Assembly: GCA_025325205.1 (NCBI GenBank) | Contig: GCA_025325205.1_4770.1 | From: a phage | Reading direction: 5' to 3' (one strand) | DNA length: 52,259 nucleotides | Shown: positions 1,321 to 34,109 of the stretch, piece by piece | How positions within the stretch are numbered: the first letter of the stretch is position 1 | Layout of the letters: each line of letters begins with the position of its first letter | Program-made: the position numbers and the translations under genes | Notes under the pieces: model-generated | The model's input: the letters and a program-made list of their open reading frames with translations, nothing else | Told to the model about the DNA's origin: nothing | The model's database searches: none

Positions 1321-1532
1321 GATGTTCTCCAGATTACACTATTTCGAATTTCATCATTCCAAACGTATTTCCCCTTCTCACCATTTTTATAGGATGGAAC
1401 AGAGAAAACGGAGGAACTTGGATATAGATCTGATGTTGTTAAGCGTATACGCTTACCGTCAAAAGGTCCACCAACACAAAGGAACAGACCAGTCTTAGGT
1501 TTCTTCAAAATGGTTCCTCCTCTGTTGTACAC
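1317..1532 (-). CDS. hypothetical protein
   Basis: 71-aa ORF filling the gap between neighbouring minus-strand genes; no motif recognised. Confidence 0.25.
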   Translation of the reverse strand: MYNRGGTILKKPKTGLFLCVGGPFDGKRIRLTTSDLYPSSSVFSVPSYKNGEKGKYVWNDEIRNSVIWRTS

Positions 1533-1999
1533 TGAGCCATTTTAAGAGTATAAGCTACGTCATAGAAGTCAACACCTTGACCACAGCTATCGCAGTAGTG
1601 GCAGGCCAATCTCACAGCCTCTTCTGCGCCGCGACCTGCCGCCATTGTACCCATCAAGAACTCAAAGGCACTACCCTCGGCAATAAATTCATTAGTGTCT
1701 GGTAGACCTAATTTACCATCCCCATAGATAGGATACACGACAAGTTCCTGCGTCACTGCAATACCATAACGCGAATCCGGAATTAAATCAGAGAAAGGTT
1801 CTTTACGACCACGAACCGTAGTTTTCAGATGTTCTACAATGTCACTTACAGGACGTAGTTTACCAGACATTGCAACAAGGCACAGTCCAATCCCTGGAAT
1901 ATTGACAGTATGAACTTTATCTGTAGTTGTTGCAATATTACCCCATGTAACCTGACGATCTACTGCCAATATACCATTACGATAAGCAATTGCGGTCAT
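1505..1999 (-). CDS. putative HslV/proteasome-like Ntn-hydrolase (threonine peptidase family)
   Basis: Starts MTAIAYRNGILAVDRQVTWGN, resembling the HslV N-terminus (Met-Thr then hydrophobic strand, RNG, GDxQ/TxGN pattern) as I recall it; Gly-rich GSAFEF...AAGRGAEEA segment later. Confidence 0.35.
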   Translation of the reverse strand: MTAIAYRNGILAVDRQVTWGNIATTTDKVHTVNIPGIGLCLVAMSGKLRPVSDIVEHLKTTVRGRKEPFSDLIPDSRYGIAVTQELVVYPIYGDGKLGLPDTNEFIAEGSAFEFLMGTMAAGRGAEEAVRLACHYCDSCGQGVDFYDVAYTLKMAQCTTEEEPF

Positions 2000-10362: not shown

Positions 10363-12912
10363 ATGCTGGAACTTTTTCCTCAAGAAATTAAACAATACGA
10401 ACAGTGGGCTGTCTGCGGTTTCCATCCAGGTACATCATCAGAAAAACAACCTTATGTGTGGGACGATGATTTAGGGGATATGGTCCCACTTCGTAAAGAC
10501 GGCAACGATAAAAAACCGTCTAATTTGCATTTACTAATGTCCTTTGAAGATGCGGAACGTTGTATTCGTTACTATAACGAAATCGGTCATAATCTGCGTT
10601 TAGGTTTCTATCTACTTCCAAGTGATCCGTTCTGTTGTATAGACATGGATATTAAAGACACCATGTCTGAAATGGAAAAGAAAGTTGCTGGTGAGCGATA
10701 TAAGAAGATTGTTGAATCGTTCCACAGTTATACGGAGATTTCCAGAAGTGGTGATGGGTTACACACATGGATTTATTCCATCCCTCAAGCTGGTAAGCGC
10801 CGTGATGGTGTGGAAGTGTATTCCCAGTATCGTTTTATTATCTGTACAGGGGATCACTGGGATATTACTCCGCGCACTGTGTCTGGTGCTCCAGGTAGTG
10901 AAAGCGAAGGGTATATCGCTAATCTCATTCATCAACTTATGTCTGAGATGAGTGAGATTAATGAGTGTGATGGCTTCCAAATGCTGGAACTTACTGAAGA
11001 AGATTTTAGTAACGACCCATATGCAATGGAAGACCAGGATGTCTATATCCAGTTGTGTGAACAAGAAAACGGAACATTGTTTAAGCAGCTATGGGAAGGT
11101 CGTTGGAGAGCTGAAGAAGTTGATACTTCTATCGGTGAACGTTGTTTCCCTTCTCAGTCTGAAGCAGAGTTTGCATTAATTGACTTTCTTTGCTTTAAGA
11201 GTAAGTACAATTTCCAGGTAAGACGTCTGTTCATGTATTCACCAATGAGTAGTCGTTACGATGATTCCCGTCGTCTGCCCGGTGAAAAAATCAAACGTCC
11301 TTATCACCTGGATAGAATGATTCGCAACTATCGCTATGACGCCCATGTTAAATCTATGGGACTTATGCAGATAGTTCAGAATAACGTTAATGCAGCTATA
11401 GAGCGCACGGAAAAACTGCGTCAAGCAACTACACCAGAACGCCCACCTGAAGAAGTGTTGACCACAGATGGTAATTACACTGAGGAGCAAGCGGACGGTT
11501 TAGCCTGGCCTCCGGGCTTTATGGGCGAGGTTGCGCGTAACATGTATAAAGCGAGCTTGTTGCCTATTAAAGACATTAGTATTCTGTCTGCTCTTGCTTT
11601 ATTTAGTGGTATGTGCGGTAAGGCGTGGAACACGGTTACACGAAGTGGTCTGAACAACTACTTTGTATTAATTGCACGTTCTGGTATTGGTAAAGAAGCA
11701 TTTCGCTCTAACATTGAAACAATTCTTTCTCAGGTTTCCAATTATGGCGGTCAGGACGGGCAACAGATATTCGGTATTGAACGTGTTTTAGATACCAGTA
11801 CCTATGCGTCTGATGCTGCATTGCGCAAAGACGTCATAATGGATACGTCTGTTATGTCTTGTGGCTCATCCATTAACTATAAGACTGAAGTCGGTGCGTT
11901 TTTCCGTAACGGTAAGATGGAAGTTGGTAAAGCTAAAGACATTATGGATGAAATGCTTTCCCTTTATGATAAAGGACATTTCTATGCTTTCTCTGGTGGT
12001 TCAAAGCACTCTAGCAAAGATAATACGACCGCTGGTGGTAAAGTCAAGGCGTATAGTTTTGCAGGTGAAACAACACCAGATGAATTTTATGGGAACGTTG
12101 ATGACCGCATGATGTCAAGTGGTTTCATGTCTCGTATTATTGCATGGGAATGTACAGCTAACCGCCCACTCATGAATAAGAGTATGCTCCTGGAATATCC
12201 GGAAGCAATTCTGCGGACTATTGGAGCTATCTATAAACAAGCTGTGCGTATTATGTCAGGGACTGCTCCATGTTATGTTGAAATGGAAGCAGAGGTACAC
12301 GAAGCGTTTGATAACCTTGATAATGTTGTCGCGAAGTTCCTGAATAGCGGTAATGACGGTGAACAGGTACAGGATGAAGTAATCCGTCAGATGTACACAA
12401 GGAAGGCGTTGAAGGTATTGCGTATCGCCTCCCTTCTTGCTGTAGCAGATAACAGTGAGCGTCCTGTTGTTACTATGGAACATTATCGTTGGGCTGAGTC
12501 ATTTATTGATCAGGGTAACGAGCGTTTCTTAGAGAAGCGTAATAGTGGGCTGATTGGGTCTACAGATAGTACCAGTCGTGAGAAAATAATGCTCAACTCT
12601 ATCAAGAAGTTCTTGGATGGGGAAGTTAAAGCTGGTGTGTATAAACGGTTCCCAATGTTTAAGGACGCGTTTATTGTCACACGAAGTGATCTATGCACAG
12701 TATGTCGCCAGTTCAAGGCTTTTAAACAAACAAGAAATGACAACATCTTGCAGGTCATAGACAACACAATTTATGGTTTGATGTCCATGGAAGTTCTTAC
12801 TGAGATGAGGCCAATGGACTTTTCAAGTTTCTTCGGTGCAGAGTTTACACCACCGAGGATGAAATGTTATTTGGTGGACATTGAGAGAATGAACGAAGTT
12901 ATTAAGTTATAA
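10363..12912 (+). CDS. DNA primase-polymerase (archaeo-eukaryotic primase superfamily) with large C-terminal domain
   Basis: AEP motifs in order: CCIDMDIKD (hhhDxD), SRSGDGLHTWIY (sGxGxH), FIICTGDHWD; C-terminal region has only a degenerate P-loop-like SGIGKE, so helicase activity is not supported. Confidence 0.6.
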   Translation: MLELFPQEIKQYEQWAVCGFHPGTSSEKQPYVWDDDLGDMVPLRKDGNDKKPSNLHLLMSFEDAERCIRYYNEIGHNLRLGFYLLPSDPFCCIDMDIKDTMSEMEKKVAGERYKKIVESFHSYTEISRSGDGLHTWIYSIPQAGKRRDGVEVYSQYRFIICTGDHWDITPRTVSGAPGSESEGYIANLIHQLMSEMSEINECDGFQMLELTEEDFSNDPYAMEDQDVYIQLCEQENGTLFKQLWEGRWRAEEVDTSIGERCFPSQSEAEFALIDFLCFKSKYNFQVRRLFMYSPMSSRYDDSRRLPGEKIKRPYHLDRMIRNYRYDAHVKSMGLMQIVQNNVNAAIERTEKLRQATTPERPPEEVLTTDGNYTEEQADGLAWPPGFMGEVARNMYKASLLPIKDISILSALALFSGMCGKAWNTVTRSGLNNYFVLIARSGIGKEAFRSNIETILSQVSNYGGQDGQQIFGIERVLDTSTYASDAALRKDVIMDTSVMSCGSSINYKTEVGAFFRNGKMEVGKAKDIMDEMLSLYDKGHFYAFSGGSKHSSKDNTTAGGKVKAYSFAGETTPDEFYGNVDDRMMSSGFMSRIIAWECTANRPLMNKSMLLEYPEAILRTIGAIYKQAVRIMSGTAPCYVEMEAEVHEAFDNLDNVVAKFLNSGNDGEQVQDEVIRQMYTRKALKVLRIASLLAVADNSERPVVTMEHYRWAESFIDQGNERFLEKRNSGLIGSTDSTSREKIMLNSIKKFLDGEVKAGVYKRFPMFKDAFIVTRSDLCTVCRQFKAFKQTRNDNILQVIDNTIYGLMSMEVLTEMRPMDFSSFFGAEFTPPRMKCYLVDIERMNEVIKL

Positions 12913-17128: not shown

Positions 17129-17719
17129 ATGCTCATCACGATAATATCGGATGCGTCGTTCTGTCACCGTACTAAATGTGGAGGCTATGGAATTTGGGTA
17201 GCCTCCAAACGGGGTAAAAAGGCTTTTGGTGGCCCTGCACATGGCCACACGGATAATACCGTAGTCGAATGTATTGCAGTAGCTAACGGTTTATATCATG
17301 GTATAGAAGCTGGACTTATCTACACAAACGACGTTATATTGTTCCAGACGGATTGCAAAGCAGCTATCCATATGTTCGAAGGTAAACGTCCACCGAGAGG
17401 AGAAGAGCAGCAAGTATATAAATGGTTCATGGATACTATTGTCGAGAATAGACTTAGTTTCCAATTTCGTCATGTTAAAGGTCATTCGGGTAGGATGGAT
17501 TCCCGTAGTCTTGCACAAGACAAGTGCGATGAAATTGCGGGTATGCACATGCGAACAGGTAGACGACGCATGGACTACGATAAATTAAAAGTAGATACAG
17601 CAAAATCCGTTATTCCTAAACCGAAGAAATTTAACATTGAGAAACAGCAATCTTGGGTTAGGAAGTTAAAACTTCTTGTTCGGGAACACACAAAGGTAAA
17701 TTTCAATGGCTCGATTTAA
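17129..17719 (+). CDS. RNase H-like nuclease
   Basis: IISDASF ... GGYGIW ... ECIAVANGL ... TDCKAAIHM ... KGHSG: pattern of acidic residues and spacing typical of RNase H fold. Confidence 0.5.
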   Translation: MLITIISDASFCHRTKCGGYGIWVASKRGKKAFGGPAHGHTDNTVVECIAVANGLYHGIEAGLIYTNDVILFQTDCKAAIHMFEGKRPPRGEEQQVYKWFMDTIVENRLSFQFRHVKGHSGRMDSRSLAQDKCDEIAGMHMRTGRRRMDYDKLKVDTAKSVIPKPKKFNIEKQQSWVRKLKLLVREHTKVNFNGSI

Positions 17720-18650
17720 ACCTTTTCTTGCAACAGATTGGGATTCAGCTAAACAGAAATACCCTGTAGGTATCATGCCTAAAATTGACGGCGTTCGTGG
17801 GATGAAACCGTTTGGGGAGCTTGTTGGACGAAGTCTTAAATCTTTTGCAAATAAGCAGGTCGCAAAGGTATTTGGATCTCCCATCTATGATGGTATGGAC
17901 GGTGAGCTTGCGGTTGGGGACGAAACGGACTTTGATTTATGTCGCAAGACAAGTAGTGCAACATCTAAAATTGAAGGTGAATATGTTTGGACGTGGCATG
18001 TGTTCGATTTGTGCGAACCGAATGTTGCACATCTACCGTACAAAGAGCGTTATGATATGCTCAAGAAGTACGTGGACGAATGCCACGCTAACGGCGAGTT
18101 GATGGACGTGAAACTTGTGCCGTTGTATGTGGTCAACAACGAACAAGAACTCCTGGAGTGGGAAAATATTTGGCTCGATATGGGATACGAAGGTGTTATT
18201 ATTCGTGATCTTGAAGCGAAATATAAATGGGGTCGTAGTACGCAACGTGAAGGCGGTTATCTCCGCATTAAACGTTTCACTGATGGTGAAGGCGAGATCA
18301 TTCGTATCATTGAAGGTTGCACCAACGCAAATGAGGCTCAGATTAACGAATTAGGACAGACGTTCCGTTCATCCCATCAGGAAAATATGATTCCAAATGG
18401 TATGGTTGGCTCATTTGATGTACGTGTGCTTACAGTACCAGAAGGCCTTGAAGATCTTATTGAAGTCGGGCAAGAGATGCGTGTAGGTGCTGGTCGTCTT
18501 ACGCACGAAGAACGTAAATATTATTTTGAGCATCCTGATGAATTCATTGGGAAGATTTCTAAATGGAAATTCTTTGCTCACGGTATGAAAGATAAATTGC
18601 GTATTCCTACGCATCAAAGTTTCCGTGATCCAACAGATATTAGTGAATAA
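17706..18650 (+). CDS. ATP-dependent DNA ligase
   Basis: Motif I KIDGVRG (KxDGxR adenylation lysine), DGELAVG, size about 310 aa typical of minimal phage ligases. Confidence 0.75.
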   Translation: MARFKPFLATDWDSAKQKYPVGIMPKIDGVRGMKPFGELVGRSLKSFANKQVAKVFGSPIYDGMDGELAVGDETDFDLCRKTSSATSKIEGEYVWTWHVFDLCEPNVAHLPYKERYDMLKKYVDECHANGELMDVKLVPLYVVNNEQELLEWENIWLDMGYEGVIIRDLEAKYKWGRSTQREGGYLRIKRFTDGEGEIIRIIEGCTNANEAQINELGQTFRSSHQENMIPNGMVGSFDVRVLTVPEGLEDLIEVGQEMRVGAGRLTHEERKYYFEHPDEFIGKISKWKFFAHGMKDKLRIPTHQSFRDPTDISE

Positions 18651-18714: not shown

Positions 18715-19461
18715 ATGCAATTTACAACTACCGCGCAGGCAGTTTTAGACACTGGTGTCAAGATGCTTGTGTATGGTGAATCCGGTATGGGTAAGACCAT
18801 GCTCACAGCAACCCTTCCAAGACCGTTGCTGATTTCTGCAGAGTCCGGGCTTTTGTCTTTAACACCGAATAACATTGCTCGTGTATTTGGTGAAAACAGA
18901 CCAGATATCTGCTACGATATTCCAACCATCACGGTTGAAAATATCCAGGATGTAGAGCAGGCTTATGTTTGGGCGACTAACCCTGCAAACAATCCTGTAG
19001 GTGAAGATGGTTTACCGCGCTTTCAGTCTCTTGCGCTGGATTCACTTACTGAGATTGCTGAAAAGTGCCTTAACAATGCGAAGCGTACTGTGAAAGATCC
19101 GCGTCAGGCTTATGGGGATCTTATTGAGAAGATGCAAACTTTAGTTCGCGCTTTTCGAGATATCCCTGGACTTAACGTGTACATGGCAGCTAAAATGTCC
19201 CGTAACAAGGACGAGTTGACAGGTATTACGTCTTACGGTCCTTCTATGCCTGGTGCAAAATTAGGTCCAGAATTACCATACTTTTTTGACGAAGTGTTCA
19301 AAATTAGTGTTGGTAAAGACCAAAATACTCAAGCAGATTTTCGTTATCTGCTGACCAGACCAGATCTGTCAAATGTATGTAAAGATCGTTCTGGTTCGTT
19401 AGAACAGATGGAATATCCACATCTTGGTGCAATCATTAACAAAATCAAAGGGGTGCAATAA
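18715..19461 (+). CDS. RecA-core ATPase (Sak4-like recombination protein candidate)
   Basis: Walker A VYGESGMGKT, Walker B-like LALDSL; about 250 aa; adjacent SSB-like gene. Confidence 0.5.
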   Translation: MQFTTTAQAVLDTGVKMLVYGESGMGKTMLTATLPRPLLISAESGLLSLTPNNIARVFGENRPDICYDIPTITVENIQDVEQAYVWATNPANNPVGEDGLPRFQSLALDSLTEIAEKCLNNAKRTVKDPRQAYGDLIEKMQTLVRAFRDIPGLNVYMAAKMSRNKDELTGITSYGPSMPGAKLGPELPYFFDEVFKISVGKDQNTQADFRYLLTRPDLSNVCKDRSGSLEQMEYPHLGAIINKIKGVQ

Positions 19462-20384
19462 TGGCCGGTTTAGGAATGCAATTTAACGCTGGACAACACG
19501 CAGAGCGTCAACACAATAGCTTGATGCCCGCTGGTTGGTATGTTGTTCAGATTGTAAACTCTGAAATCAAACCGACTAAAACTCCAGGCGGTGCGCGTCT
19601 GAATCTTCAGTTTAAGATTATGCAGGGTGATTTTGCTGGTCGTGTAATGTTTGGCGGTTACAACGTCAAGAACGCGAACCCTGTCGCTGTACAGATTGCA
19701 ATGGAAGAACTGGCAGAGCTGTCCCGTGCTGTTAAAGTTCCAGTTTGGAACGATACCGAACAACTGCACGGTATTCCGTTCAACCTGAAAGTGAAAGTTC
19801 GTCAGCAACCTGGCTATGAGCCAAACAACGAACCTCAGATTTATCAAGCAATTGATAATATGGAAGGTGTTGTATACGCAACTAAGGCGGACATGGCTAA
19901 CCTGCCTAAATCAACTCCGGCAGCGGCAGCACAGTCTCCAGCATTTGGTGGCGGTGCGTTCGGTGGTACTCAGCAGCCACAGCAGCAGCAACCGCAGCAG
20001 GGTTTCCCTGGTGCATTTGGGCAGCAGCCGCAGCAACAGCAGCAGCAACCTCAGACTCAGGGGTTCCAGCAGCAGCAGCAACAGCAACAACAGCCGCAGC
20101 AGCCGGTACAGCAGCAGCAACCGCAGCAGTCTGGAACAGTTGATTTTAACAGTGCGGCACAATCTCAACCGTGGGCTAATGGTGCGCAGCAGCAGACTCA
20201 GCAGCAACCTAACTGGGCAACTCAGCAGGTACAGCCTGGAGCAGAGCAACCACAAACTCAAGCTCAGAATACTGGTACTGCTAACCATGCAGAACCTGAA
20301 GTCCAGGATGATATCGCTAAAGCAGCTCAGACCAAGACTCCACCGTGGAAACGTTCCACTGAAGGCGATGACGCTGCACAGTAA
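19461..20384 (+). CDS. putative ssDNA-binding protein with Gln/Pro-rich low-complexity linker
   Basis: Globular N-terminal part then QQPQQQQ... tract and acidic C-terminus; position next to Sak4-like ATPase; no OB-fold motif verified. Confidence 0.35.
   Translation: MAGLGMQFNAGQHAERQHNSLMPAGWYVVQIVNSEIKPTKTPGGARLNLQFKIMQGDFAGRVMFGGYNVKNANPVAVQIAMEELAELSRAVKVPVWNDTEQLHGIPFNLKVKVRQQPGYEPNNEPQIYQAIDNMEGVVYATKADMANLPKSTPAAAAQSPAFGGGAFGGTQQPQQQQPQQGFPGAFGQQPQQQQQQPQTQGFQQQQQQQQQPQQPVQQQQPQQSGTVDFNSAAQSQPWANGAQQQTQQQPNWATQQVQPGAEQPQTQAQNTGTANHAEPEVQDDIAKAAQTKTPPWKRSTEGDDAAQ
19971..20130 (+). repeat. CAG/CAA-rich (poly-Gln/Pro) coding microsatellite
   Basis: Runs of cagcagcagcaaccgcagcag read from sequence inside ORF 19461-20384. 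Confidence 0.8.
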
Positions 20385-20446: not shown

Positions 20447-21397
20447 ATGCCACATTTTTATCCTGCTACTAAGACAATGGAGTTATTCAATGACTGTATT
20501 GAACGAGATCAAGGATCCGCTTACAGAGTATGGCTCGGAAAAGTATTACCGCATATTGAAGACGCATATCGAGAGGGAGATGGCGGATTCCGTTCGCATC
20601 TTGGGATTAGTCTTATCGGGCAAGAATGTAGTAGAGCAATCTTCTACGGATGGAGATGGGCAACTAAACCACACTTTAACGGTAAAACCTTACGTCTATT
20701 CAATCGCGGGCATCTTGAAGAAGGTCGCTTCGTGGCCTTATTACTTACCGCCGGTATGCAAGTCATCCAACAAGACGAAAATGGCAGCCAGTATAGAGTC
20801 AGCTATCTCAACGGGCACTTTGGTTCCGCGATAGATGGTATTGTCATTGGTTGCCCCGACATGCCACAACCTTCTACACCAATCTTAACGGAGATGAAAA
20901 CGCACAATAACGATTCGTTCAAGAAACTTGTCGTTAATGGTGTGATGGAATCCAAATGGGAGCACTATGTTCAGATGCAGGAATACATGTTGTATTATGG
21001 GCTCCCAGCCGCTCTTTATATTGCAGTTAATAAGAACACGGACGAGATTTGGGCAGAGCTTGTACCGTTTGATAAAGAAACAGCAGAACGCTACAAAGAC
21101 CGTGGATTTGTAATTGCACTGGCGGAATGCCCACCACCTAAGATCAATGAAAGTAAATCTTACTATAAATGCAAATGGTGTGACCACAAAGCGGTGTGCC
21201 ATAACAACAAAATGCCTGAAGTTAACTGCCGCACCTGTAAGCACTCTTATCCGCTTGAAGATGGAACCTGGAGATGCGCAATCAAAGTAGCTTCTGCTAC
21301 TGCATACATCACGGATGGAACCGAAGGTGTATTAACGAAGGAAGATCAGATGGCAGCATGTGGTCAATACGAAGCAGCAGATTATTACGGTGAGTAA
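20447..21397 (+). CDS. Cas4/RecB-like PD-(D/E)XK exonuclease with cysteine cluster
   Basis: AIDGIV ... TEMKT (D...ExK); N-terminal Cys (QECSRA) plus C-terminal CKWCDHKAVC suggest a Cas4-type Fe-S site. Confidence 0.55.
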   Translation: MPHFYPATKTMELFNDCIERDQGSAYRVWLGKVLPHIEDAYREGDGGFRSHLGISLIGQECSRAIFYGWRWATKPHFNGKTLRLFNRGHLEEGRFVALLLTAGMQVIQQDENGSQYRVSYLNGHFGSAIDGIVIGCPDMPQPSTPILTEMKTHNNDSFKKLVVNGVMESKWEHYVQMQEYMLYYGLPAALYIAVNKNTDEIWAELVPFDKETAERYKDRGFVIALAECPPPKINESKSYYKCKWCDHKAVCHNNKMPEVNCRTCKHSYPLEDGTWRCAIKVASATAYITDGTEGVLTKEDQMAACGQYEAADYYGE

Positions 21398-23401
21398 ATG
21401 TTCAAACTACGTGATTATCAGCAAGAAGCTGTAAACAGTACATTGCGCTATTTCATCAAGTATGGTGAAAAGTCAGGAAATCCTGTTATCTTGTTGCCTA
21501 CAGGGACTGGTAAGTCCCTTGTAATTGCTGGTCTATTAAAGACAATTCACGATAATTGGGGTAGTACCCGCATGATGGTAATTACTCACGTAAAAGAATT
21601 GATAGACCAGAACCACGATAAATTTAAGAAGTTGTGGCCTGAAGCACCGACTGGTATTTATAGTGCTGGTATGGGTCGCAAGGATAAGAATGCAATGATA
21701 ACGTTCGCAGGTATTCAGTCTGTTGCAAAACAAGCTAAATACTTCGAGGACGTTGATATTATTATAGTTGACGAATGTGACCTTATTAGCCCAAATCAGC
21801 AAACAAGTTATCAGAAGTTCTTTGCGCACATTCGTGAAAAGAACCCATATCTAAAGATTATCGGTCTTACTGCTACGAGTTGGCGTCTTGGTTTTGGTTC
21901 TATTATCAAAGATGATTATGCGCCTAACGCTTTATTTGATGAAATCGTATTTAACGCATGTACCGTAGAGTGCTTCAACTGGTTCATTGATGAAGGTTAT
22001 CTTGTTCCGTTAGTACCACGTAAAACAAAGAAAGAGTATGATGTAAGTGGTGTTCATACTCGAGGCGGTGAGTTCATTGAAAGTGAGCTTCAAAAGGTTG
22101 TAAACGATCCTGATGTAACTCGCCATTTATTAGATGATGCGATTAGTATTGCGGAAGAAGAGAATAGAATGAGTTGGCTTGTCTTTTGTGCTGGTGTAGA
22201 CCATGCAAAAGATGTCAAAGACTACCTCAACGAGCGCGGTATTAGTTGTGAAGTTGTAACTGGTGATACACCGAAAGCCTTGCGTGACCAGTATCTTATT
22301 GATTTTAAAGCTGGTCGTTTACAGGCAATAGCAAACAACAACGTATTGACGACAGGCTTTGACCATCCGGGTCTTGACTTGATAATTGGTATGCGCCCGT
22401 CCCAATCTTCCCGCCTATGGGTTCAGATGCTTGGACGTGGTACTCGACCTGATTATGCAGATGGTTTTGATTTGACCACAACGGAAGGTCGTTTGCAAGC
22501 TATCTCCGCTTCGCATAAACAGAACTGTCTTGTACTAGACTATGCAGGTAATACAAGACGTCTTGGACCTATTAACGACCCTGTAATTCCTAAGCGTCCA
22601 GGGCAGAAAGGAAAGTCCGCTGCACCTGTTAAAGAATGCCCGGTATGTAAAACCTGGAACCATGCGTCGGTTCGCTATTGTGGTGGGTTAAAACCATTCG
22701 ATACAAGCGGTATGTCCCATGAAGAAATACTCTATCTTCAAGGGTTAGGATATACCATTACAAATAATAAAGCGTGTCGTGCTGGTTATTGCGGTCATGA
22801 GTTTACTTTTGAGAAGAAACTGATGGCGAGTGCTAGTACGAAGGCTATTATCAAGAATGATTTGCCAGTCACTGAAGTGTTGAAAGTTGATATGGTGAGT
22901 TACTATCGTCACGAGAACAGGGGTGACCGTTCTAAGCCACCAACACTTCGTGTAGATTATCTTTGTGGGTCACAAACTATTCAACAATATATTTGTCTGT
23001 TTCATACTGGCTTTGCAGGCAAGAAAGCGCGTAACTGGTGGCGCGAGCATTGCAGCTTGGCAATCCCAGCCAACATTGACGAAGCCCTCAATGTGGTCAG
23101 CCAGCTCCGTGTACCGACGCACATTTATGTCAACTTGAAGGGTAAGTTCCCTGAAGTGTTGAATAGTTGTTATGACGGTAGTGAGTTCGGTAAGAAAGAA
23201 GCAACCAACGAACGTCCGGTTGTACAAATCGCAGCAATGAATGGCTTGTCCCAGTTTGGTGGAAGTTATACGAATAAGTTTGATGAAGACGAGCAGACTG
23301 ATTCTCGTACGACAGTATTGCATTCTACGTCTAATCAACCTATTCTTACTGGTAACGGTAAAGAACTACCACCAGATTTTGATGACGACATTCCATTTTG
23401 A
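21398..23401 (+). CDS. SF2 DNA helicase with zinc-finger and SSB-like acidic C-terminal tip
   Basis: Walker A LLPTGTGKS, Walker B IIVDECD, TATSWR, QMLGRGTR; CPVCKTWNHASVRYC; last residues PPDFDDDIPF. Confidence 0.75.
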   Translation: MFKLRDYQQEAVNSTLRYFIKYGEKSGNPVILLPTGTGKSLVIAGLLKTIHDNWGSTRMMVITHVKELIDQNHDKFKKLWPEAPTGIYSAGMGRKDKNAMITFAGIQSVAKQAKYFEDVDIIIVDECDLISPNQQTSYQKFFAHIREKNPYLKIIGLTATSWRLGFGSIIKDDYAPNALFDEIVFNACTVECFNWFIDEGYLVPLVPRKTKKEYDVSGVHTRGGEFIESELQKVVNDPDVTRHLLDDAISIAEEENRMSWLVFCAGVDHAKDVKDYLNERGISCEVVTGDTPKALRDQYLIDFKAGRLQAIANNNVLTTGFDHPGLDLIIGMRPSQSSRLWVQMLGRGTRPDYADGFDLTTTEGRLQAISASHKQNCLVLDYAGNTRRLGPINDPVIPKRPGQKGKSAAPVKECPVCKTWNHASVRYCGGLKPFDTSGMSHEEILYLQGLGYTITNNKACRAGYCGHEFTFEKKLMASASTKAIIKNDLPVTEVLKVDMVSYYRHENRGDRSKPPTLRVDYLCGSQTIQQYICLFHTGFAGKKARNWWREHCSLAIPANIDEALNVVSQLRVPTHIYVNLKGKFPEVLNSCYDGSEFGKKEATNERPVVQIAAMNGLSQFGGSYTNKFDEDEQTDSRTTVLHSTSNQPILTGNGKELPPDFDDDIPF

Positions 23402-23408
23402 GGCTTAT

Positions 23409-23648
23409 ATGGCAAAGATGACTTTTAGGAGTAATGACCATTTACCAGAAGAAGGTGAATGGAAGACTTTTAAAGAGTGGGAAGAGTTGGGTTATGGTGT
23501 AATTAAAGGTGAAAGAGCTAAACGGTTTATTCACGGTGTTGCAGTTTTTCACGAAAGTCAAGTAATCAATATTGAAGATGAGTTCGAAAAATATAAACGT
23601 GAAGAACTGCAAGGAATGTATTGTGGACCAGAATGGTGGAAGGATTAA
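23409..23648 (+). CDS. hypothetical protein
   Basis: ORF 23241-23648 trimmed to ATG 23409 after helicase stop. Confidence 0.3.
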   Translation: MAKMTFRSNDHLPEEGEWKTFKEWEELGYGVIKGERAKRFIHGVAVFHESQVINIEDEFEKYKREELQGMYCGPEWWKD

Positions 23649-30589: not shown

Positions 30590-31582
30590 ATGGATTTACT
30601 TGATGCTTTAAAGTTTGTTCAGGGTTCTGTAGCTAAGAAAGAACTCCAGGAAGGTTTAACTCACTTCCGTATTGTTGATGGTACTGTTCGCGGGTTCAAC
30701 GGAACTATTTCATTGTGTAGTCCAGTACCACTGAACATTGACTGTACACCGAAAGCCGAACCGATGCTCAAGGCTATTGCAGCATGTGACGAAGCTGTAC
30801 AGATGACAATGTTAGCGAACGGTAAGTTGAGCATTAAGTCTGGTGGCTTTAAGGTCAGTGTAGACACTCTTCAGAAACCAACTGCGCACGTAGAGCCAGA
30901 AGGAACAATTCACGAAATAGACGGTCAGCTTTTTCTCAACGGTTTAAGCCGCGTAACGCCGTTTATAAGCGACGATGCTTCCCGCCCGTGGTCTTGCGGC
31001 GTGCTGGTAAAACAGGGCAGCATGTACGCAACCAACAACGCTAGTATTATACAATATTGGTTCGGTGCTGTATTCCCTGTCGATTGTGTTGTGCCACGTA
31101 TGGCCATCAAAGAATTATTGCGTATTAAAAAGCCACCAGTAAGAATTCAATGTACAGATACCAGTATGACATTTCACTACGAAGACGGTTGCTGGTTGCG
31201 TACCCAATTGCTGGAATTAAAGTGGCCCAACATTGACAAGATAATCGAGCGTACAGAAAAGGGGTCTGACGTCTATACGCTTGATACTGAGCTTTTTAAC
31301 TGCTTAGAGAAAATAAAACCGTTCTGTGAACGTGATGGGCGTATCTACATGGAAAATGGTGTTGTGCGCACCCATTACAACGAGCTGGATGGTGCTAGTG
31401 CAATGTTCCGTGAATCTAAGTCAATTGGCGTGTATAATATAGATCTCATTATGCAGTTGAAAGGACTTGCAACGGACTGGGATGCCTCTCGTTTCAATGA
31501 AAAGGACGAAAGGGGTCTTTCAACTCCTATTATTTTTTATGGTGAAAATCTACGTGGGGTAATTGTAGGATTTCGTCTATGA
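30590..31582 (+). CDS. DNA polymerase sliding clamp (beta-clamp/DnaN-like)
   Basis: FISDDASRPWSCGVLVKQG...YATNNASII resembles the beta-clamp domain-II signature (F-x-S-x-DE-x-RP-x-L-x-GVL ... ATDG-RLA); N-terminal GTVRGFNGTISL like the clamp GTD strand; about 330 aa. Confidence 0.5.
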   Translation: MDLLDALKFVQGSVAKKELQEGLTHFRIVDGTVRGFNGTISLCSPVPLNIDCTPKAEPMLKAIAACDEAVQMTMLANGKLSIKSGGFKVSVDTLQKPTAHVEPEGTIHEIDGQLFLNGLSRVTPFISDDASRPWSCGVLVKQGSMYATNNASIIQYWFGAVFPVDCVVPRMAIKELLRIKKPPVRIQCTDTSMTFHYEDGCWLRTQLLELKWPNIDKIIERTEKGSDVYTLDTELFNCLEKIKPFCERDGRIYMENGVVRTHYNELDGASAMFRESKSIGVYNIDLIMQLKGLATDWDASRFNEKDERGLSTPIIFYGENLRGVIVGFRL

Positions 31583-32139
31583 GAAAAGCATTGCCGTTAC
31601 CGCCGTACACTTATCTTCATGAGTGCTTCGACTATAACGAAATTACTGGTGTCCTCACATGGAAAGTGAGGCCCTCACATCATTTTAAATCCGAAAGAGC
31701 TCGAAAGATCGCAAACACACTATTTTCTGGAAAACAAGCTGGAAATGTTGTCACATGTAGTGGTAAGAAATACTTACAAGTTACAATAGATAGAAAATTA
31801 TATCTTGTTCATAGAATTTGTTATAAAATGTATTATAACAAAGAACCGACTGTAATCGATCATGACGATGGAAATGGACTTCACAACTGGATATTAAACT
31901 TAAATGATGGTACAATGTCCGACAATATGAAAAACAGGAAGATGTTAGAATGCAATTCCACTGGTGTTACTGGTGTGAGTCTGACTAAATTAGGGATGTG
32001 GAATGCACATATAATGGTTGGATATAAGGGTTATAATCTATATACAGGCCCTGATTTGTTTGAAGCCTGTTGTGCTAGAAAATCCGCTGAACTATTATAT
32101 GGTTTTAATAAAAATCACGGTAAAGAGAGAAATCTATGA
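31579..32139 (+). CDS. HNH homing endonuclease with AP2-type DNA-binding domain
   Basis: IDHDDGNGLHNWILNLN (HNH core) and GVTGVSLTKLGMWNAHIMVGYKGYNLYTGPDLFEACCARKSAEL (AP2-like); AT-rich relative to flanks; ATGA overlaps on both sides. Confidence 0.7.
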   Translation: MRKALPLPPYTYLHECFDYNEITGVLTWKVRPSHHFKSERARKIANTLFSGKQAGNVVTCSGKKYLQVTIDRKLYLVHRICYKMYYNKEPTVIDHDDGNGLHNWILNLNDGTMSDNMKNRKMLECNSTGVTGVSLTKLGMWNAHIMVGYKGYNLYTGPDLFEACCARKSAELLYGFNKNHGKERNL

Positions 32140-34109
32140 GAAAAGACGCGATTGGGTTTTTCTGGACGGATTTACCTCCCGCTAAGAAAGAGAAGAAACA
32201 GAAAGTAAAACGTCAACCAGTTGAAAGGGTATGGGAGCGCCCAGACTACCTTCCAGGTCTTGATGCAGCAATGCGTTTTGCAGCTAATGATCCGCGTATG
32301 ACAGACGGTGAATTAGTGGAGATGTATTTTGCACAAGAAACGTTCGTATACGATATCGAATGCTATAAGAACTATTTTCTTGTAGCGTTTAAAGGGGTTA
32401 AGTTCGGTAAGGTTTATTATCTAGAAATGACTGCTGGTCAAACACTTGACACGGAAAAGTATGAATGGATAATGAAGAACTTTCGTACCGTTGGTTTCAA
32501 CTCAAGAAACTACGATAATACGATGACATTCCTTGCCATTGCTGGTCTGACTGTTGACAAGCTGAAAGAAGCAAGTGACAGGATGATCCAGGAAGAGTGG
32601 GCCCCGTGGGACATTCTTAACAGTTTTGGTGTGAAGCAGTTTTGGATTGACCACATTGACGTTCAAGAAGTAGCTCCTGGCTTCGGTTCCCTAAAATTGT
32701 ACGGTGGCCGTATGCACATGCAGAAGCTCCAGGACTTACCGTTCCCACCGCATTGGGCGCTGTCCATAGAACAGATTGCTATTGTGCGCTTCTACTGTAT
32801 CAACGACCTTGATACAACAATGGCTCTGTTTAACTCACTGGAAGAGCAGATCCATCTACGTGAGATTATGAGTGAAGAGTATAAAGTAGACCTTCGCTCT
32901 AAATCTGACGCACAAATTGCAGAAGCAGTAATCCGCCATGAAATGAAGGAAATGTTGGGCTTCGTACCACAGAAGGGTATGGTGGAAGTTGGTAGAACCT
33001 TCAGATATAATCCTCCAGTGTGGTTAGGTTTCCAAACGCCACTAATGAAGTCCGTATTTCAGGTGGTGCTTGACAGTTACTTCCGAGTTGCAGAAGATGG
33101 TAAGATTAAGCAACCATCTACAATGAACTCTTTGAAGTTTACGATCAACCAGACAACTTACAACATGGGTATCGGTGGTCTACACTCTTGCGAAGAGTTA
33201 ATGGAGATTGTACCATCTGAAGATGAAGAGATGTGGGATGCTGACGTAACGTCGTACTACCCAATCTGTATCATCAACCAGCAACTGTATCCTGAACACC
33301 TGGGCCCACGCTTTATCGATATCTTCGTCAAGATCGTAGAACGACGTATTGCAGCTAAGATGGCTCACGACGATAAGACAGCACAAACTCTTAAGATCGT
33401 TATCAACGGTTCTTATGGTAAGTTTGGTTCACCGTTCTCTATCCTGTATGCACCGCACCTTATTATCCAGACTACGCTAACAGGTCAGTTAGCTTTGCTT
33501 ATGCTCATTGAGACATTGGAGCTTAACGGTATCCAGGTCGTTAGTGCTAACACAGATGGTATCGTTATTAAACCTTGCAAAGCTAAGAAGCAATTAATGA
33601 CTGATATCATTAAGTGGTGGGAAGAGACAACTGGCTTTGAAATGGAACTGAATCAGTACCTGCGTCTTAACTCTGCAAACGTTAACAACTACGTCGCAAT
33701 CAAGGCGGATGGTAAAGCCAAGCGTAAAGGTTGGTTCGCAGAGACAGGTCTTGCTAAGAACGCGGAAGGTGAGATTATTATGGATGCTGTGGTTAATCTC
33801 CTCCGTGACGGTACGCCAATTGCTAAAACTATCACAGAGTGTCAAGATATTCGTAAGTTTGTTTGTATCAAGACAGCTAACGGTGGCGCCGCGTGGAATA
33901 GTGAGCCATTAGGTAAAGTTGTTCGTTGGTATTATACAAAAGAGGAAGTACCTGAAATACTGATAGTCAAGAGTGGTGGTCGTGTTGGTAAGACAGCAGG
34001 GGGTAAACCTATGATGGAACTCACTGACCAGTTACCGCCGGATCTCAACCACGAAGTGTACATAGCTAAAGCGGAAAAATTGCTGGAAAAACTCGCATAC
34101 GCCGCTTAA
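32136..34109 (+). CDS. DNA polymerase, family B (with 3'-5' exonuclease domain)
   Basis: Exo I VYDIE, Exo II NSRNYD, Exo III YCINDLD; pol motif A DVTSYYP, motif B KIVINGSYGKFG (Kx3NSxYG), motif C ANTDGIV. Confidence 0.75.
   Translation: MRKDAIGFFWTDLPPAKKEKKQKVKRQPVERVWERPDYLPGLDAAMRFAANDPRMTDGELVEMYFAQETFVYDIECYKNYFLVAFKGVKFGKVYYLEMTAGQTLDTEKYEWIMKNFRTVGFNSRNYDNTMTFLAIAGLTVDKLKEASDRMIQEEWAPWDILNSFGVKQFWIDHIDVQEVAPGFGSLKLYGGRMHMQKLQDLPFPPHWALSIEQIAIVRFYCINDLDTTMALFNSLEEQIHLREIMSEEYKVDLRSKSDAQIAEAVIRHEMKEMLGFVPQKGMVEVGRTFRYNPPVWLGFQTPLMKSVFQVVLDSYFRVAEDGKIKQPSTMNSLKFTINQTTYNMGIGGLHSCEELMEIVPSEDEEMWDADVTSYYPICIINQQLYPEHLGPRFIDIFVKIVERRIAAKMAHDDKTAQTLKIVINGSYGKFGSPFSILYAPHLIIQTTLTGQLALLMLIETLELNGIQVVSANTDGIVIKPCKAKKQLMTDIIKWWEETTGFEMELNQYLRLNSANVNNYVAIKADGKAKRKGWFAETGLAKNAEGEIIMDAVVNLLRDGTPIAKTITECQDIRKFVCIKTANGGAAWNSEPLGKVVRWYYTKEEVPEILIVKSGGRVGKTAGGKPMMELTDQLPPDLNHEVYIAKAEKLLEKLAYAA

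Follow-up and report, generated by a model that had tools for sequence, protein, structure and literature searches.

The C-terminal peptide of bacterial SSB (SSB-Ct) is a hub of genome maintenance; in Escherichia coli, at least 17 proteins are its partners. Docking by the C-terminal tails of the phage T7 proteins gp4 and gp2.5 is described in further detail in the literature from the Richardson laboratory. The tail of gp4 (DTDF) is an SSB-type, acidic, Phe-terminated replisome docking peptide on a phage helicase and, like the gp2.5 tail, binds a basic patch of the T7 polymerase (PMC12339929). In phage HK620, the DUF669 protein was experimentally shown to be an SSB, and its NDYPPF tail is needed for stimulation of Sak4 (PMC5928155). 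DRT10 is triggered by Bas52_0087, an SSB-like phage protein whose tip reads FDDDIPF and whose proposed partners are host factors that process ssDNA, for example ExoI/SbcB (bioRxiv 10.64898/2026.04.29.721553). The E. coli SF2 DNA-repair ATPase RadD (YejH) reads this peptide: its RD1 pocket binds SSB-Ct with a KD of ~5 µM, and its ATPase activity is stimulated (PMC10238739). Finally, expression of Heli22, a helicase of the Seuratvirus Bas22 that was grouped with T4 UvsW and T5 D10, triggers Retron-Eco11; Nonagvirus was reported to have the same helicase, whose C-terminal tail is unmentioned there (PMC12746101). Full-text literature searches found no prior description of an SSB-type tail on such a helicase.

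Here, we describe a RadD-like helicase that ends in the same eight residues as host SSB. It is encoded in a 52,259-nt stretch of Nonagvirus DNA (the window, ~52 of roughly 60 kb), and its features and those of neighboring genes are collected in Table 1.

Table 1. Coordinates of the helicase gene, its parts, and other module genes in the window
Feature	Coordinates	Strand	Basis and remarks
RadD-like SF2 helicase gene	21398..23401	+	667 aa; ORF and translation; Nonagvirus (phage 9g relative)
Two RecA-like motor domains (~aa 1-400)	21398..22597	+	Aligns to RadD 3-387; AF2 pLDDT >90
Zinc-ribbon element (~aa 411-470)	22628..22807	+	C414, C417, C428, and C465 invariant in alignment A1
Folded C-terminal domain (~aa 490-616)	22865..23245	+	AF2 pLDDT ~90
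Hypervariable, predicted disordered linker (aa 617-659, ~43 residues)	23246..23374	+	AF2, homologue comparison
SSB-Ct-type tip DFDDDIPF (aa 660-667)	23375..23398	+	Translation; last residues before stop
DUF669 phage SSB	19461..20384	+	Pfam DUF669; PHROG 6015 "single strand DNA binding protein"
Sak4-like RecA-family ATPase	18715..19461	+	Pfam AAA_24, E=6.8e-23
Cas4-domain (RecB-type) exonuclease	20447..21397	+	PHROG 1990, E=7.9e-115
Beta-clamp-like DNA polymerase processivity factor	30590..31582	+	PHROG 947, E=8.5e-82; weak PDB match to beta sliding clamp
Phage DNA polymerase, candidate receptor	32136..34109	+	PHROG 1252, E=1.4e-228
AEP and DUF3987 protein, likely replicative primase-helicase	10363-12912		

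Pfam matches to ResIII, DEAD, and Helicase_C place the protein among the SF2 helicases. A phmmer search of the PDB matched E. coli RadD (6jde/7r7j; E=3.9e-64) over residues 2 to 417, where the sequence alignment ends, and the best eight Foldseek matches were all RadD (structures 8h5y/6jde/7r7j; E ~1e-34 to 1e-36). Across ~640 Foldseek columns that take in the C-terminal region, similarity to RadD is loose (TM 0.44-0.53, rmsd ~16 Å). The Q-motif, Walker A GKS, DE, TAT, and QxxGRxxR columns of the motor domains are invariant in the homologue alignment (A1), and a zinc ribbon follows RD2, its CPVC aligned to CPAC of RadD. A conserved VWxNKKYPEI motif lies close to the end of the folded C-terminal domain. 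In the AF2 model, run as a single chain from a 112-sequence alignment, residues 1 to 616 are confidently folded, and residues 617 to 667 have pLDDT values below 50. Other Nonagvirus helicases share 95-97% nucleotide identity with this gene, and in GenBank, phages 9g and FritzHoffmann have the coding sequence annotated to the same end, which here is the TGA codon at 23399-23401. The helicase is an orthologue of Seuratvirus Heli22 (658 aa), which by length and genus corresponds to 658-aa Seuratvirus-type homologues with 56% identity to the window protein; the Seuratvirus tail reads DDPDYVPF, against DFDDDIPF here. By analogy with RadD, with which it shares homologous motor domains and zinc ribbon, the helicase likely has an accessory role beside a RecA-family protein. 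Whereas RadD is a reader of SSB-Ct, the phage helicase is a carrier of the tip.

Within the module, the last base of the exonuclease gene adjoins the helicase start, an order kept in related phages, whose Sak4 gene is annotated as Sak4-like or RecA-like. The DUF669 SSB consists of an N-terminal OB-like domain, a long Q/P-rich linker, and a C-terminal TPPW at 20337-20348. No clamp-loader-like family was found among the scanned ORFs of the window; because part of the genome lies beyond it, the phage may still encode a clamp loader.

The initial annotation had pointed out that the helicase ends in the SSB tip motif and that the phage SSB does not. Translation confirms both: the helicase ends ...GKELPPDFDDDIPF (tail peptide, KELPPDFDDDIPF), and the DUF669 SSB ends ...TPPWKRSTEGDDAAQ, a TPPW-x11 tail in which the SSB-Ct tip is absent. 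The ssb product of E. coli K-12 (NC_000913.3) ends ...NEPPMDFDDDIPF, so that the last eight residues are identical at 8/8 positions. Since the tip lies at the extreme C terminus, its Phe carboxylate is free. Among window ORFs of at least 60 aa, the helicase alone has this kind of end; the ORF at 1505-1999 on the minus strand ends EEEPF.

The resemblance to bacterial SSB thus covers the last eight residues, their position at the extreme C terminus, and the preceding predicted disordered linker. The differences are in the carrier. SSB is an OB-fold tetramer that coats ssDNA and presents four tips, whereas a monomeric-type SF2 helicase presents one, on a linker that is not Gly/Gln/Pro-rich. Unlike gp4 of T7, a hexameric SF4 replicative helicase-primase whose tail copies the phage's own SSB, the window carrier is SF2 and RadD-like and copies the host's. 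HK620 has the same Sak4-DUF669 module and a short aromatic C-terminal docking peptide, but there the tail belongs to the SSB and acts on the annealase, whereas here a host-type tip sits on the helicase. Bas52_0087, likewise from a coliphage, has an SSB tip identical to the host's, but its carrier is the expected one, an OB-fold SSB-like protein.

We compared the ends of helicase homologues across the family. An [IV]PF end is present in 117 of the best 120 database homologues (44-99% identity). Among 150 distinct tipped homologues, defined by an [ILVM]P[FW] end, all end in PF, 100 in [DE]3[IVL]PF, and 70 in exactly DDDIPF. Position by position, P(-1) and F(0) are present in 150/150, position -2 is I, V, or L, D/E dominates from -3 to -5, and, as in SSB, a hydrophobic residue (F/L/M) is frequent at -6 and an acidic one at -7, for a family consensus of D-[FLM/D]-D-D-D-I-P-F. 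This bacterial consensus is kept among helicases that are only ~40-50% identical. The linker, in contrast, has no conservation among homologues, and the length of linker plus tip varies from 2 to 123 aa (median, 50). In related loci, [ILVM]P[FW] ends occur on 36 of ~80 helicase orthologues versus 5 of 3,968 minus-strand (mostly spurious) ORFs, which excludes a chance origin of the helicase tip. As judged from these alignments, purifying selection on the tip across the family, while linkers are hypervariable, is strongly supported. Homologues without a tip terminate directly after the folded C-terminal domain, and cellular RadD ends in ...RFRLAHELRG, with no such tail, indicating that the tail was gained in phages.

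Comparison with host tips gave a mixed picture. The helicases of four Rhizobiaceae phages end in (L)DDEVPF, close to the LDDEIPF end that is common in alpha-proteobacterial SSBs (PMC13490951). Seuratvirus and Vid5-like enterobacterial phages, by contrast, have DDPDYVPF or LPDPDVPF tips, which differ from the host sequence; the Seuratvirus tips argue against strict host tracking. A scan of genome contigs returned mostly MAG contigs and a clade of tipless Acetobacteraceae prophage helicases; MAG bins are unreliable for phage, and the scan gave no usable host statistics. Because most sequences lack host labels, host tracking rests on the four Rhizobiaceae phages and the 9g group.

When all proteins of related loci were considered, tips were found on the helicase in 36 cases, on a small Zn-finger protein in 25, on the clamp in 4, and on the DUF669 SSB in 1. 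Related phages thus carry one tip per replication/recombination module on a varying carrier, which is a new result. The Zn-finger carrier (phrog_23504) is 62-90 aa long and translated directly after the helicase; a gene for it was detected in none of the 36 loci with a tipped helicase, though the downstream flanks of some are short. In most cases, the tip-bearing gene overlaps the helicase gene by 1-11 nt and is translationally coupled to it, and a tip-bearing gene directly 3' of the helicase gene is the putative ancestral arrangement. The clamp of the window is tipless and ends ...VIVGFRL, and orthologues with a DDDIPF-type tip occur in four related loci (L069, L070, L079, and L087), in three of which the gene lies directly 3' of the helicase gene. 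The phage SSB is normally tailed otherwise: the SSB-Ct tip is missing from 64 of 65 DUF669 homologues, and 60 of the 65 have a PPW-type motif inside the last 12 aa. Helicase-borne tips fall into essentially one large clade and one small one, so the anticorrelation between carriers rests on few independent events (12 state changes on a neighbor-joining tree). A Zn-protein HMM matched none of 120 helicase homologues, and no fusion of the helicase to the Zn domain was therefore detected among them. The tips of the Zn-finger protein are weakly acidic (EWLGEIPF, KWIMVIPF), unlike SSB-Ct, which suggests a receptor that would mainly read IPF-COOH; an AF2 model of this protein reached a pLDDT of 50 from 13 close homologues, a level at which a free versus a packed IPF end is not readable. 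Conservation of the peptide on different replication proteins indicates that it is probably a portable plug into the replication/repair machinery. Distant relatives of the helicase in phages of Actinobacteria, Firmicutes, and Flavobacterium have other C termini, without a tip. Two of these loci have separate ORFs (155 and 220 aa) that end in KKDDLPF, putatively canonical SSB tips; these ORFs fit complementarity between carriers, though they are too distant to weigh.

The initial annotation had further proposed that the helicase mimics the SSB tail and so docks onto, or competes for, host SSB-interacting proteins. The part of this proposal that stands is mimicry as a functional, selected feature, which is strongly supported by the family-wide conservation of the tip, the predicted disordered linker, a consensus that equals bacterial SSB-Ct from -7 to 0, and the Rhizobiaceae variant close to alpha-proteobacterial SSB tips. 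A host SSB-interacting protein is a candidate receptor only: carrier switching, weakly acidic Zn-protein tips, and the Seuratvirus deviation from the host fit a phage-encoded receptor equally well. As in T7, the tail might contact a different phage protein, or it might occupy a RadD-type pocket of the helicase itself.

We consider it plausible, though we hold the view tentatively, that the tail works as an SSB-Ct-type docking peptide and links the phage recombination helicase to pockets reading the host SSB tip. An acidic, IPF-COOH-terminated plug would be held on the ~43-residue disordered leash of a RadD-like recombination/branch-processing helicase, whose partners in the module would be the Cas4-type exonuclease, the DUF669 SSB, and the Sak4 annealase. 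Inserted into pockets that evolved for reading the host SSB C terminus, the plug would recruit host SSB-interacting proteins to phage recombination/replication intermediates, compete with host SSB for them, or both. Because the SSB of the module has a different tail (PPW), it cannot present a host-type tip, and the helicase presents one instead. As a specific receptor, the host clamp-loader subunit chi would be our first, speculative guess: the scanned ORFs contain no clamp-loader match, the phage encodes a clamp and a polymerase, and the clamp is tipped in four lineages.

A receptor inside the phage would change this picture. The tip might dock the helicase onto the phage polymerase, the AEP-primase/DUF3987 helicase, or Sak4, in a T7-like tether whose likeness to SSB-Ct would be a shared physical solution or reflect a phage receptor that also reads host SSB. 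We regard this as unlikely but a serious contender, with precedents in the polymerase-binding tails of T7 and, in the same kind of module, in the HK620 DUF669 SSB tail that Sak4 requires. All carriers are replisome/fork proteins, including the processivity factor, an obligate polymerase binder, and the usual translational coupling with the helicase gene, the weakly acidic Zn-protein tips, and the unhostlike Seuratvirus tips point the same way. A single coevolving phage interface would, however, be expected to drift, yet the exact bacterial DDDIPF recurs in 70/150 helicases; the phage-internal tails DTDF (T7) and NDYPPF (HK620) differ from the bacterial consensus. The Rhizobiaceae variant, moreover, shifts in parallel with the SSB tips of the hosts, and no candidate pocket for a tether was identified. 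Homology of the helicase to RadD, itself an SSB-Ct binder and a point that the initial annotation had missed, raises another option: the tail might plug a RadD-type pocket kept by the helicase, either in cis or in trans, and in relatives the Zn protein, clamp, or SSB would supply the tip that fills it. Filling the pocket would activate, autoinhibit, or oligomerize the helicase independently of host SSB. The homology is clear, SSB-Ct stimulates RadD, and among pocket residues F19 is invariant in tipped helicases, L46, I121, and I155 vary conservatively, and the basic R58 and K153 are kept; the putative ancestral position of the tip-bearing gene 3' of the helicase gene, and that of the tipped clamps in 3/4 loci, would also suit it. 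We nonetheless find it doubtful. Of the three RadD arginines at which charge reversal abolishes SSB-Ct binding, two (R21 and R49) are not conserved: Arg145 corresponds to K/R, Arg21 is variable (I20 in the window), and Arg49 to N/G/S beside a 5-7 residue insertion, where the alignment is uncertain. The kept residues adjoin helicase motifs, and their conservation is just as high in relatives without a tip, so they may be structural. The AF2 model gave no support for cis docking, with the tail undocked at pLDDT <50 (a weak negative), and a tip fused to the helicase without the Zn domain fits presentation to a third party better.

It is very improbable that the tip is a proteolysis tag (a C-terminal [IL]PF degron) or functionless, as a neutral relic left by capture of an ssb 3' end. 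An LPF C terminus is a ClpXP-dependent degron on SsbA of some Streptococcus mutans strains, but GFP-DDDLPF is not degraded by E. coli ClpXP (PMC5143411). The 24 tip-coding nucleotides do resemble the host ssb 3' end, with four synonymous differences; a neutral relic is incompatible with relocation between carriers and with a tip that stays conserved over hundreds of diverged phages while the linkers are hypervariable. A recent transfer from host ssb was considered separately and rejected, given the four differences and the age of the tip within the family.

Within the host-docking reading, a more specific version posits that a widespread phage module with a tipless DUF669 SSB has exactly one transferable SSB-Ct cassette, which would hop among RadD-like helicase, beta-like clamp, SSB, and small Zn-finger protein and hijack one specific host reader. 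In this form we think it rather improbable. The most attractive reader would be chi, with the phage clamp then loaded at helicase-processed recombination intermediates, and phage ssDNA would not be exposed to the remaining host SSB interactome.

A host tip on the helicase (or, among relatives, on an adaptor protein or clamp), combined with a differently tailed phage SSB, suggests selective rewiring of the SSB hub. The tip may offer a handle on recombination-replication coupling in 9g-, Seurat-, NP1-, and Rosemount-type phages, on the host factors that these phages need, and on the use of SSB-Ct by RadD-family enzymes. The pattern of one tip per module provides a new annotation rule for such proteins, which hundreds of phage genomes label "hypothetical." It also bears on anti-phage defense: the helicase family supplies a trigger of Retron-Eco11, and phage proteins that bear an SSB tip set off other reverse-transcriptase systems, so the helicase tail is worth considering when the triggers of reverse-transcriptase defenses are dissected.

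The helicase gene encodes a 667-amino-acid protein with the C-terminus ...NGKELPPDFDDDIPF, followed by TGA, and translation confirmed the eight codons that the initial annotation had assigned to its tip, a terminal DFDDDIPF like the docking peptide of bacterial SSB (SSB-Ct). The proposed match to E. coli SSB also held: against the K-12 ssb product (from NC_000913.3; C-terminus ...NEPPMDFDDDIPF), 8/8 residues are identical, while the 24 nt encoding the tip carry four synonymous differences from E. coli ssb. A Pro-Pro slightly upstream of the tip is common to both proteins. The phage is a Nonagvirus (95 to 97% nucleotide identity to phages 9g, JenK1, SE1, and FritzHoffmann), and records of its relatives annotate the end of the helicase coding sequence identically. 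The peptide has the sequence, position, and linker of an SSB-Ct, on a carrier that is not an SSB. The sole other window ORF of at least 60 amino acids with an acidic, PF-terminated end (...CTTEEEPF) encodes a 164-amino-acid protein of PHROG 1040 ("peptidase HslV family").

Conservation was assessed in 196 distinct sequences, comprising the best 120 database homologues and the helicases of related loci. An [IV]PF end is found in 117/120 of the database homologues (44 to 99% identity), and the tip is present in 150/196 distinct helicases. Among the 150 tipped helicases, Pro(-1) and Phe(0) are invariant (150/150 each), position -2 holds I (123), V (25), or L (2), and D/E predominate at positions -3 to -5; F/L/M are frequent at -6, and -7 is mostly D/E, mirroring M-D-F-D-D-D-I-P-F. 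The exact end DDDIPF occurs in 70/150 and [DE]3[IVL]PF in 100/150. The linker before the tip is unalignable (median length, 50 residues; range, 2 to 123). As background, [ILVM]P[FW] ends were found in 5/3968 minus-strand ORFs of the same loci. Judged from these alignments, the tip is under selection and is no accident. Four homologues (P0058, P0077, P0099, and P0107) have a second, internal DDDIPF about 20 to 25 residues upstream of the terminal copy, which suggests tail duplication; the internal copy lacks the free carboxylate used by SSB-Ct pockets. The very distant helicases encoded by phages of Actinobacteria, Firmicutes, and Flavobacterium lack the tip. At two loci with distant helicases, separate ORFs of 155 and 220 amino acids (candidate SSBs) end in KKDDLPF, resembling canonical SSB tips. 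A helicase clade from Acetobacteraceae (L117-L130, L153, and L161; Roseomonas, Neoroseomonas, Falsiroseomonas, Roseicella, and Crenalkalicoccus) ends in ...GQYTEIVAARFV and is tipless, with no tip-bearing ORF within 3 kb; these chromosomal homologues are probably prophages.

The helicase matches Pfam families ResIII, DEAD, and Helicase_C, and its nearest relative of solved structure, E. coli RadD, matches it with E = 3.9e-64 over residues 2-417, zinc-ribbon CPxC included. Foldseek comparison of its AlphaFold model (mean pLDDT, 87) to the PDB returned RadD structures for all top matches. The confidently folded part, residues 1-616, consists of a pair of RecA-like domains, a zinc ribbon (its four Cys are invariant), and a C-terminal domain; residues 617-667, tip included, have a pLDDT of <50. 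From these values, the predicted architecture is that of SSB, a folded body with a floppy leash and an acidic tip. RadD belongs to the known SSB-Ct readers (proteins with a pocket for this peptide): binding of the peptide in the RD1 pocket (KD, about 5 uM) stimulates the RadD ATPase and is abolished by each of the substitutions R21E, R49E, and R145E (PMC10238739). Unlike the phage helicase, E. coli RadD ends in ...AHELRG and has no SSB-Ct-type tail. The phage helicase is a RadD homologue that acquired what RadD normally reads. One 995-amino-acid homologue (P0033) contains Hom_end/LAGLIDADG-type domains (PF05204, PF05203, and PF14528), indicating an intein within the helicase, and retains the end ...EEDFDDIPF.

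The helicase gene stands at the end of a conserved block (ligase-Sak4-DUF669-Cas4-helicase) that is also present in phages infecting Pseudomonas, Vibrio, Rhizobium, Salmonella, Stenotrophomonas, and others. Additional window products include an AEP-primase/DUF3987 protein, RusA, RNase H, a beta-clamp-like processivity factor, and a DNA polymerase; the window ORFs scanned yielded no clamp-loader-like family. The AEP/DUF3987 protein is probably the replicative primase-helicase, so the RadD-like enzyme would be an accessory or recombination helicase. The 79-amino-acid ORF downstream of the helicase is present in FritzHoffmann (bas20_0039) and absent from 9g, where the next gene starts 20 nt past the helicase. 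The 186-amino-acid ORF between the clamp and polymerase genes appears to be an inserted free-standing homing endonuclease, since in 9g and FritzHoffmann these two genes overlap each other directly. The Seuratvirus orthologue of the helicase, Heli22, triggers Retron-Eco11, as do T4 UvsW and T5 D10; the paper does not discuss its tail (PMC12746101).

Coordinates of features in the window and in related loci (L-numbers)
Feature	Sequence	Location	Strand	Detail
PHROG 1040 protein	window	1505-1999	-	acidic, PF-terminated end
"DNA primase"	window	10363-12912	+	849 aa; AEP primase domain and DUF3987
ATP-dependent ligase	window	17706-18650		first gene of block
Sak4-like AAA_24 ATPase	window	18715-19461		block
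DUF669 SSB	window	19461-20384		block
TPPW motif	window	20337-20348		in DUF669 SSB gene
Cas4-type exonuclease	window	20447-21397		block; adjoins helicase
Helicase	window	21398-23401	+	RadD-like
Helicase tip codons	window	23375-23398	+	DFDDDIPF
79-aa ORF	window	23409-23648	+	PHROG 24889; weak ArdC-N-like Pfam match (E=4.5e-4); between helicase and next gene
Clamp-like factor	window	30590-31582		PHROG 947
186-aa ORF	window	31579-32139	+	weak HNH_3 match; between clamp-like and DNA polymerase genes, 4-nt overlap each side
Zn-protein gene	L004	8664-8888		directly after tipless helicase
Zn-protein gene	L005	6429-6701		directly after tipless helicase
Zn-protein gene	L006	8640-8861		directly after tipless helicase
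Zn-protein gene	L042	5201-5401		directly after tipless helicase
Tipped clamp gene	L069	4733-5887		C-terminal extension
Tipped clamp gene	L079	11623-12774		C-terminal extension
Tipped clamp gene	L087	3084-4247		C-terminal extension
Tipped clamp gene	L070	6945-8012		C-terminal extension
Tipped DUF669 SSB	L073	8379-9011		...NPIDDDIPF

As initially annotated, the phage's own SSB-like protein does not end in DFDDDIPF. In this DUF669 SSB, the N-terminal domain is OB-like and is joined to a long low-complexity linker rich in Q and P; the protein ends in ...TPPWKRSTEGDDAAQ. A PPW-type motif lies within the last 12 residues of 60/65 DUF669 homologues (L003-L091 set included), after a long Q/P/A-rich low-complexity linker. 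For HK620, the DUF669 protein has been proven to be an SSB, and its stimulation of Sak4 requires the last six residues, NDYPPF (PMC5928155). By analogy, the PPW motif probably corresponds to this tail and probably serves Sak4. Docking peptides of two different kinds are thus present in the module: PPW on the SSB and a host-type tip elsewhere.

Of about 80 loci surveyed in IMG/VR and GenBank phages, 36 had the tip on the helicase. Where the helicase ends directly past its C-terminal domain (...VWxNKKYPEIL...), the next gene, whose start often overlaps the helicase stop by 1-11 nt, usually encodes a four-Cys Zn-finger protein of 62-90 amino acids (PHROG 23504; pattern sCxNC...C...RPP...GC..W...IPF; AF2 model pLDDT, 50). 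In 25 loci the end of this Zn protein is ...W-x3-IPF or VPF, and 4 more loci have variant ends; the Zn-protein gene was undetected in 36/36 helicase-tipped loci, some with short downstream flanks. In four loci the tip (DDDIPF, DDEIPF, EDDIPF, or SDDIPF) is on a PHROG 947 clamp-like factor, the family of the window's clamp; in three of these, the clamp gene has relocated so that it directly follows the helicase gene. In one locus (L073), the tip replaces the PPW motif of the DUF669 SSB, with none on the helicase or any small ORF. About seven loci with adequate flanks had no tip on any carrier. A neighbor-joining tree has 12 tip-carrier state changes overall; its topology suggests that the Zn-protein-borne tip is ancestral and that helicase-borne tips arose in one large and one small clade. 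The anticorrelation among carriers is therefore real, though supported by few independent events.

We found no paper in which this tail is described on a helicase; an FDDDIPF tip has been noted on an SSB-like phage protein, a carrier of the kind to be expected (bioRxiv 10.64898/2026.04.29.721553, 2026 preprint). We likewise found no description of the "one tip per module, mobile carrier" pattern or of the separate PPW motif of DUF669 SSBs.

The tip might plug a RadD-type pocket of the helicase itself, a pocket that retains the hydrophobic positions and two basic positions nearby. However, Arg21 and Arg49 have no conserved equivalents, the retained positions are conserved to the same degree in tipless relatives, and the tail is undocked in the AF2 model. 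The Zn domain is entirely lost upon tip fusion to the helicase, an argument for presentation to a third party; this domain appears to have served mainly for attaching the tip to the helicase. A degron role for the tail is unlikely in E. coli. A phage-internal receptor is plausible on the precedent of T7, where the acidic, Phe-terminated tail of gp4 mirrors that of gp2.5 and docks on the polymerase (PMC12339929); this gp4 tail is the nearest functional precedent.

A host-type code is favored by the 9g tip, which is identical to that of E. coli, and by retention of the bacterial consensus among helicases that share only about 40% identity. In four Rhizobiaceae phages the end is (L)DDEVPF or ELEDDVPF, and LDDEIPF is a common end of alpha-proteobacterial SSBs (PMC13490951). 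Against strict host mimicry, Seuratvirus coliphages carry DDPDYVPF and Zn-protein tips are barely acidic. A host-tracking genome scan yielded mainly MAG contigs and tipless Acetobacteraceae prophages. We tentatively propose, at somewhat less than even confidence, that the helicase tail recruits or competes for host SSB-Ct readers at phage recombination and replication intermediates. Among host candidates, the most attractive single one would be the chi subunit of the clamp loader, since the phage has a clamp but no clamp-loader match among the window ORFs scanned and a tipped clamp occurs in four lineages.
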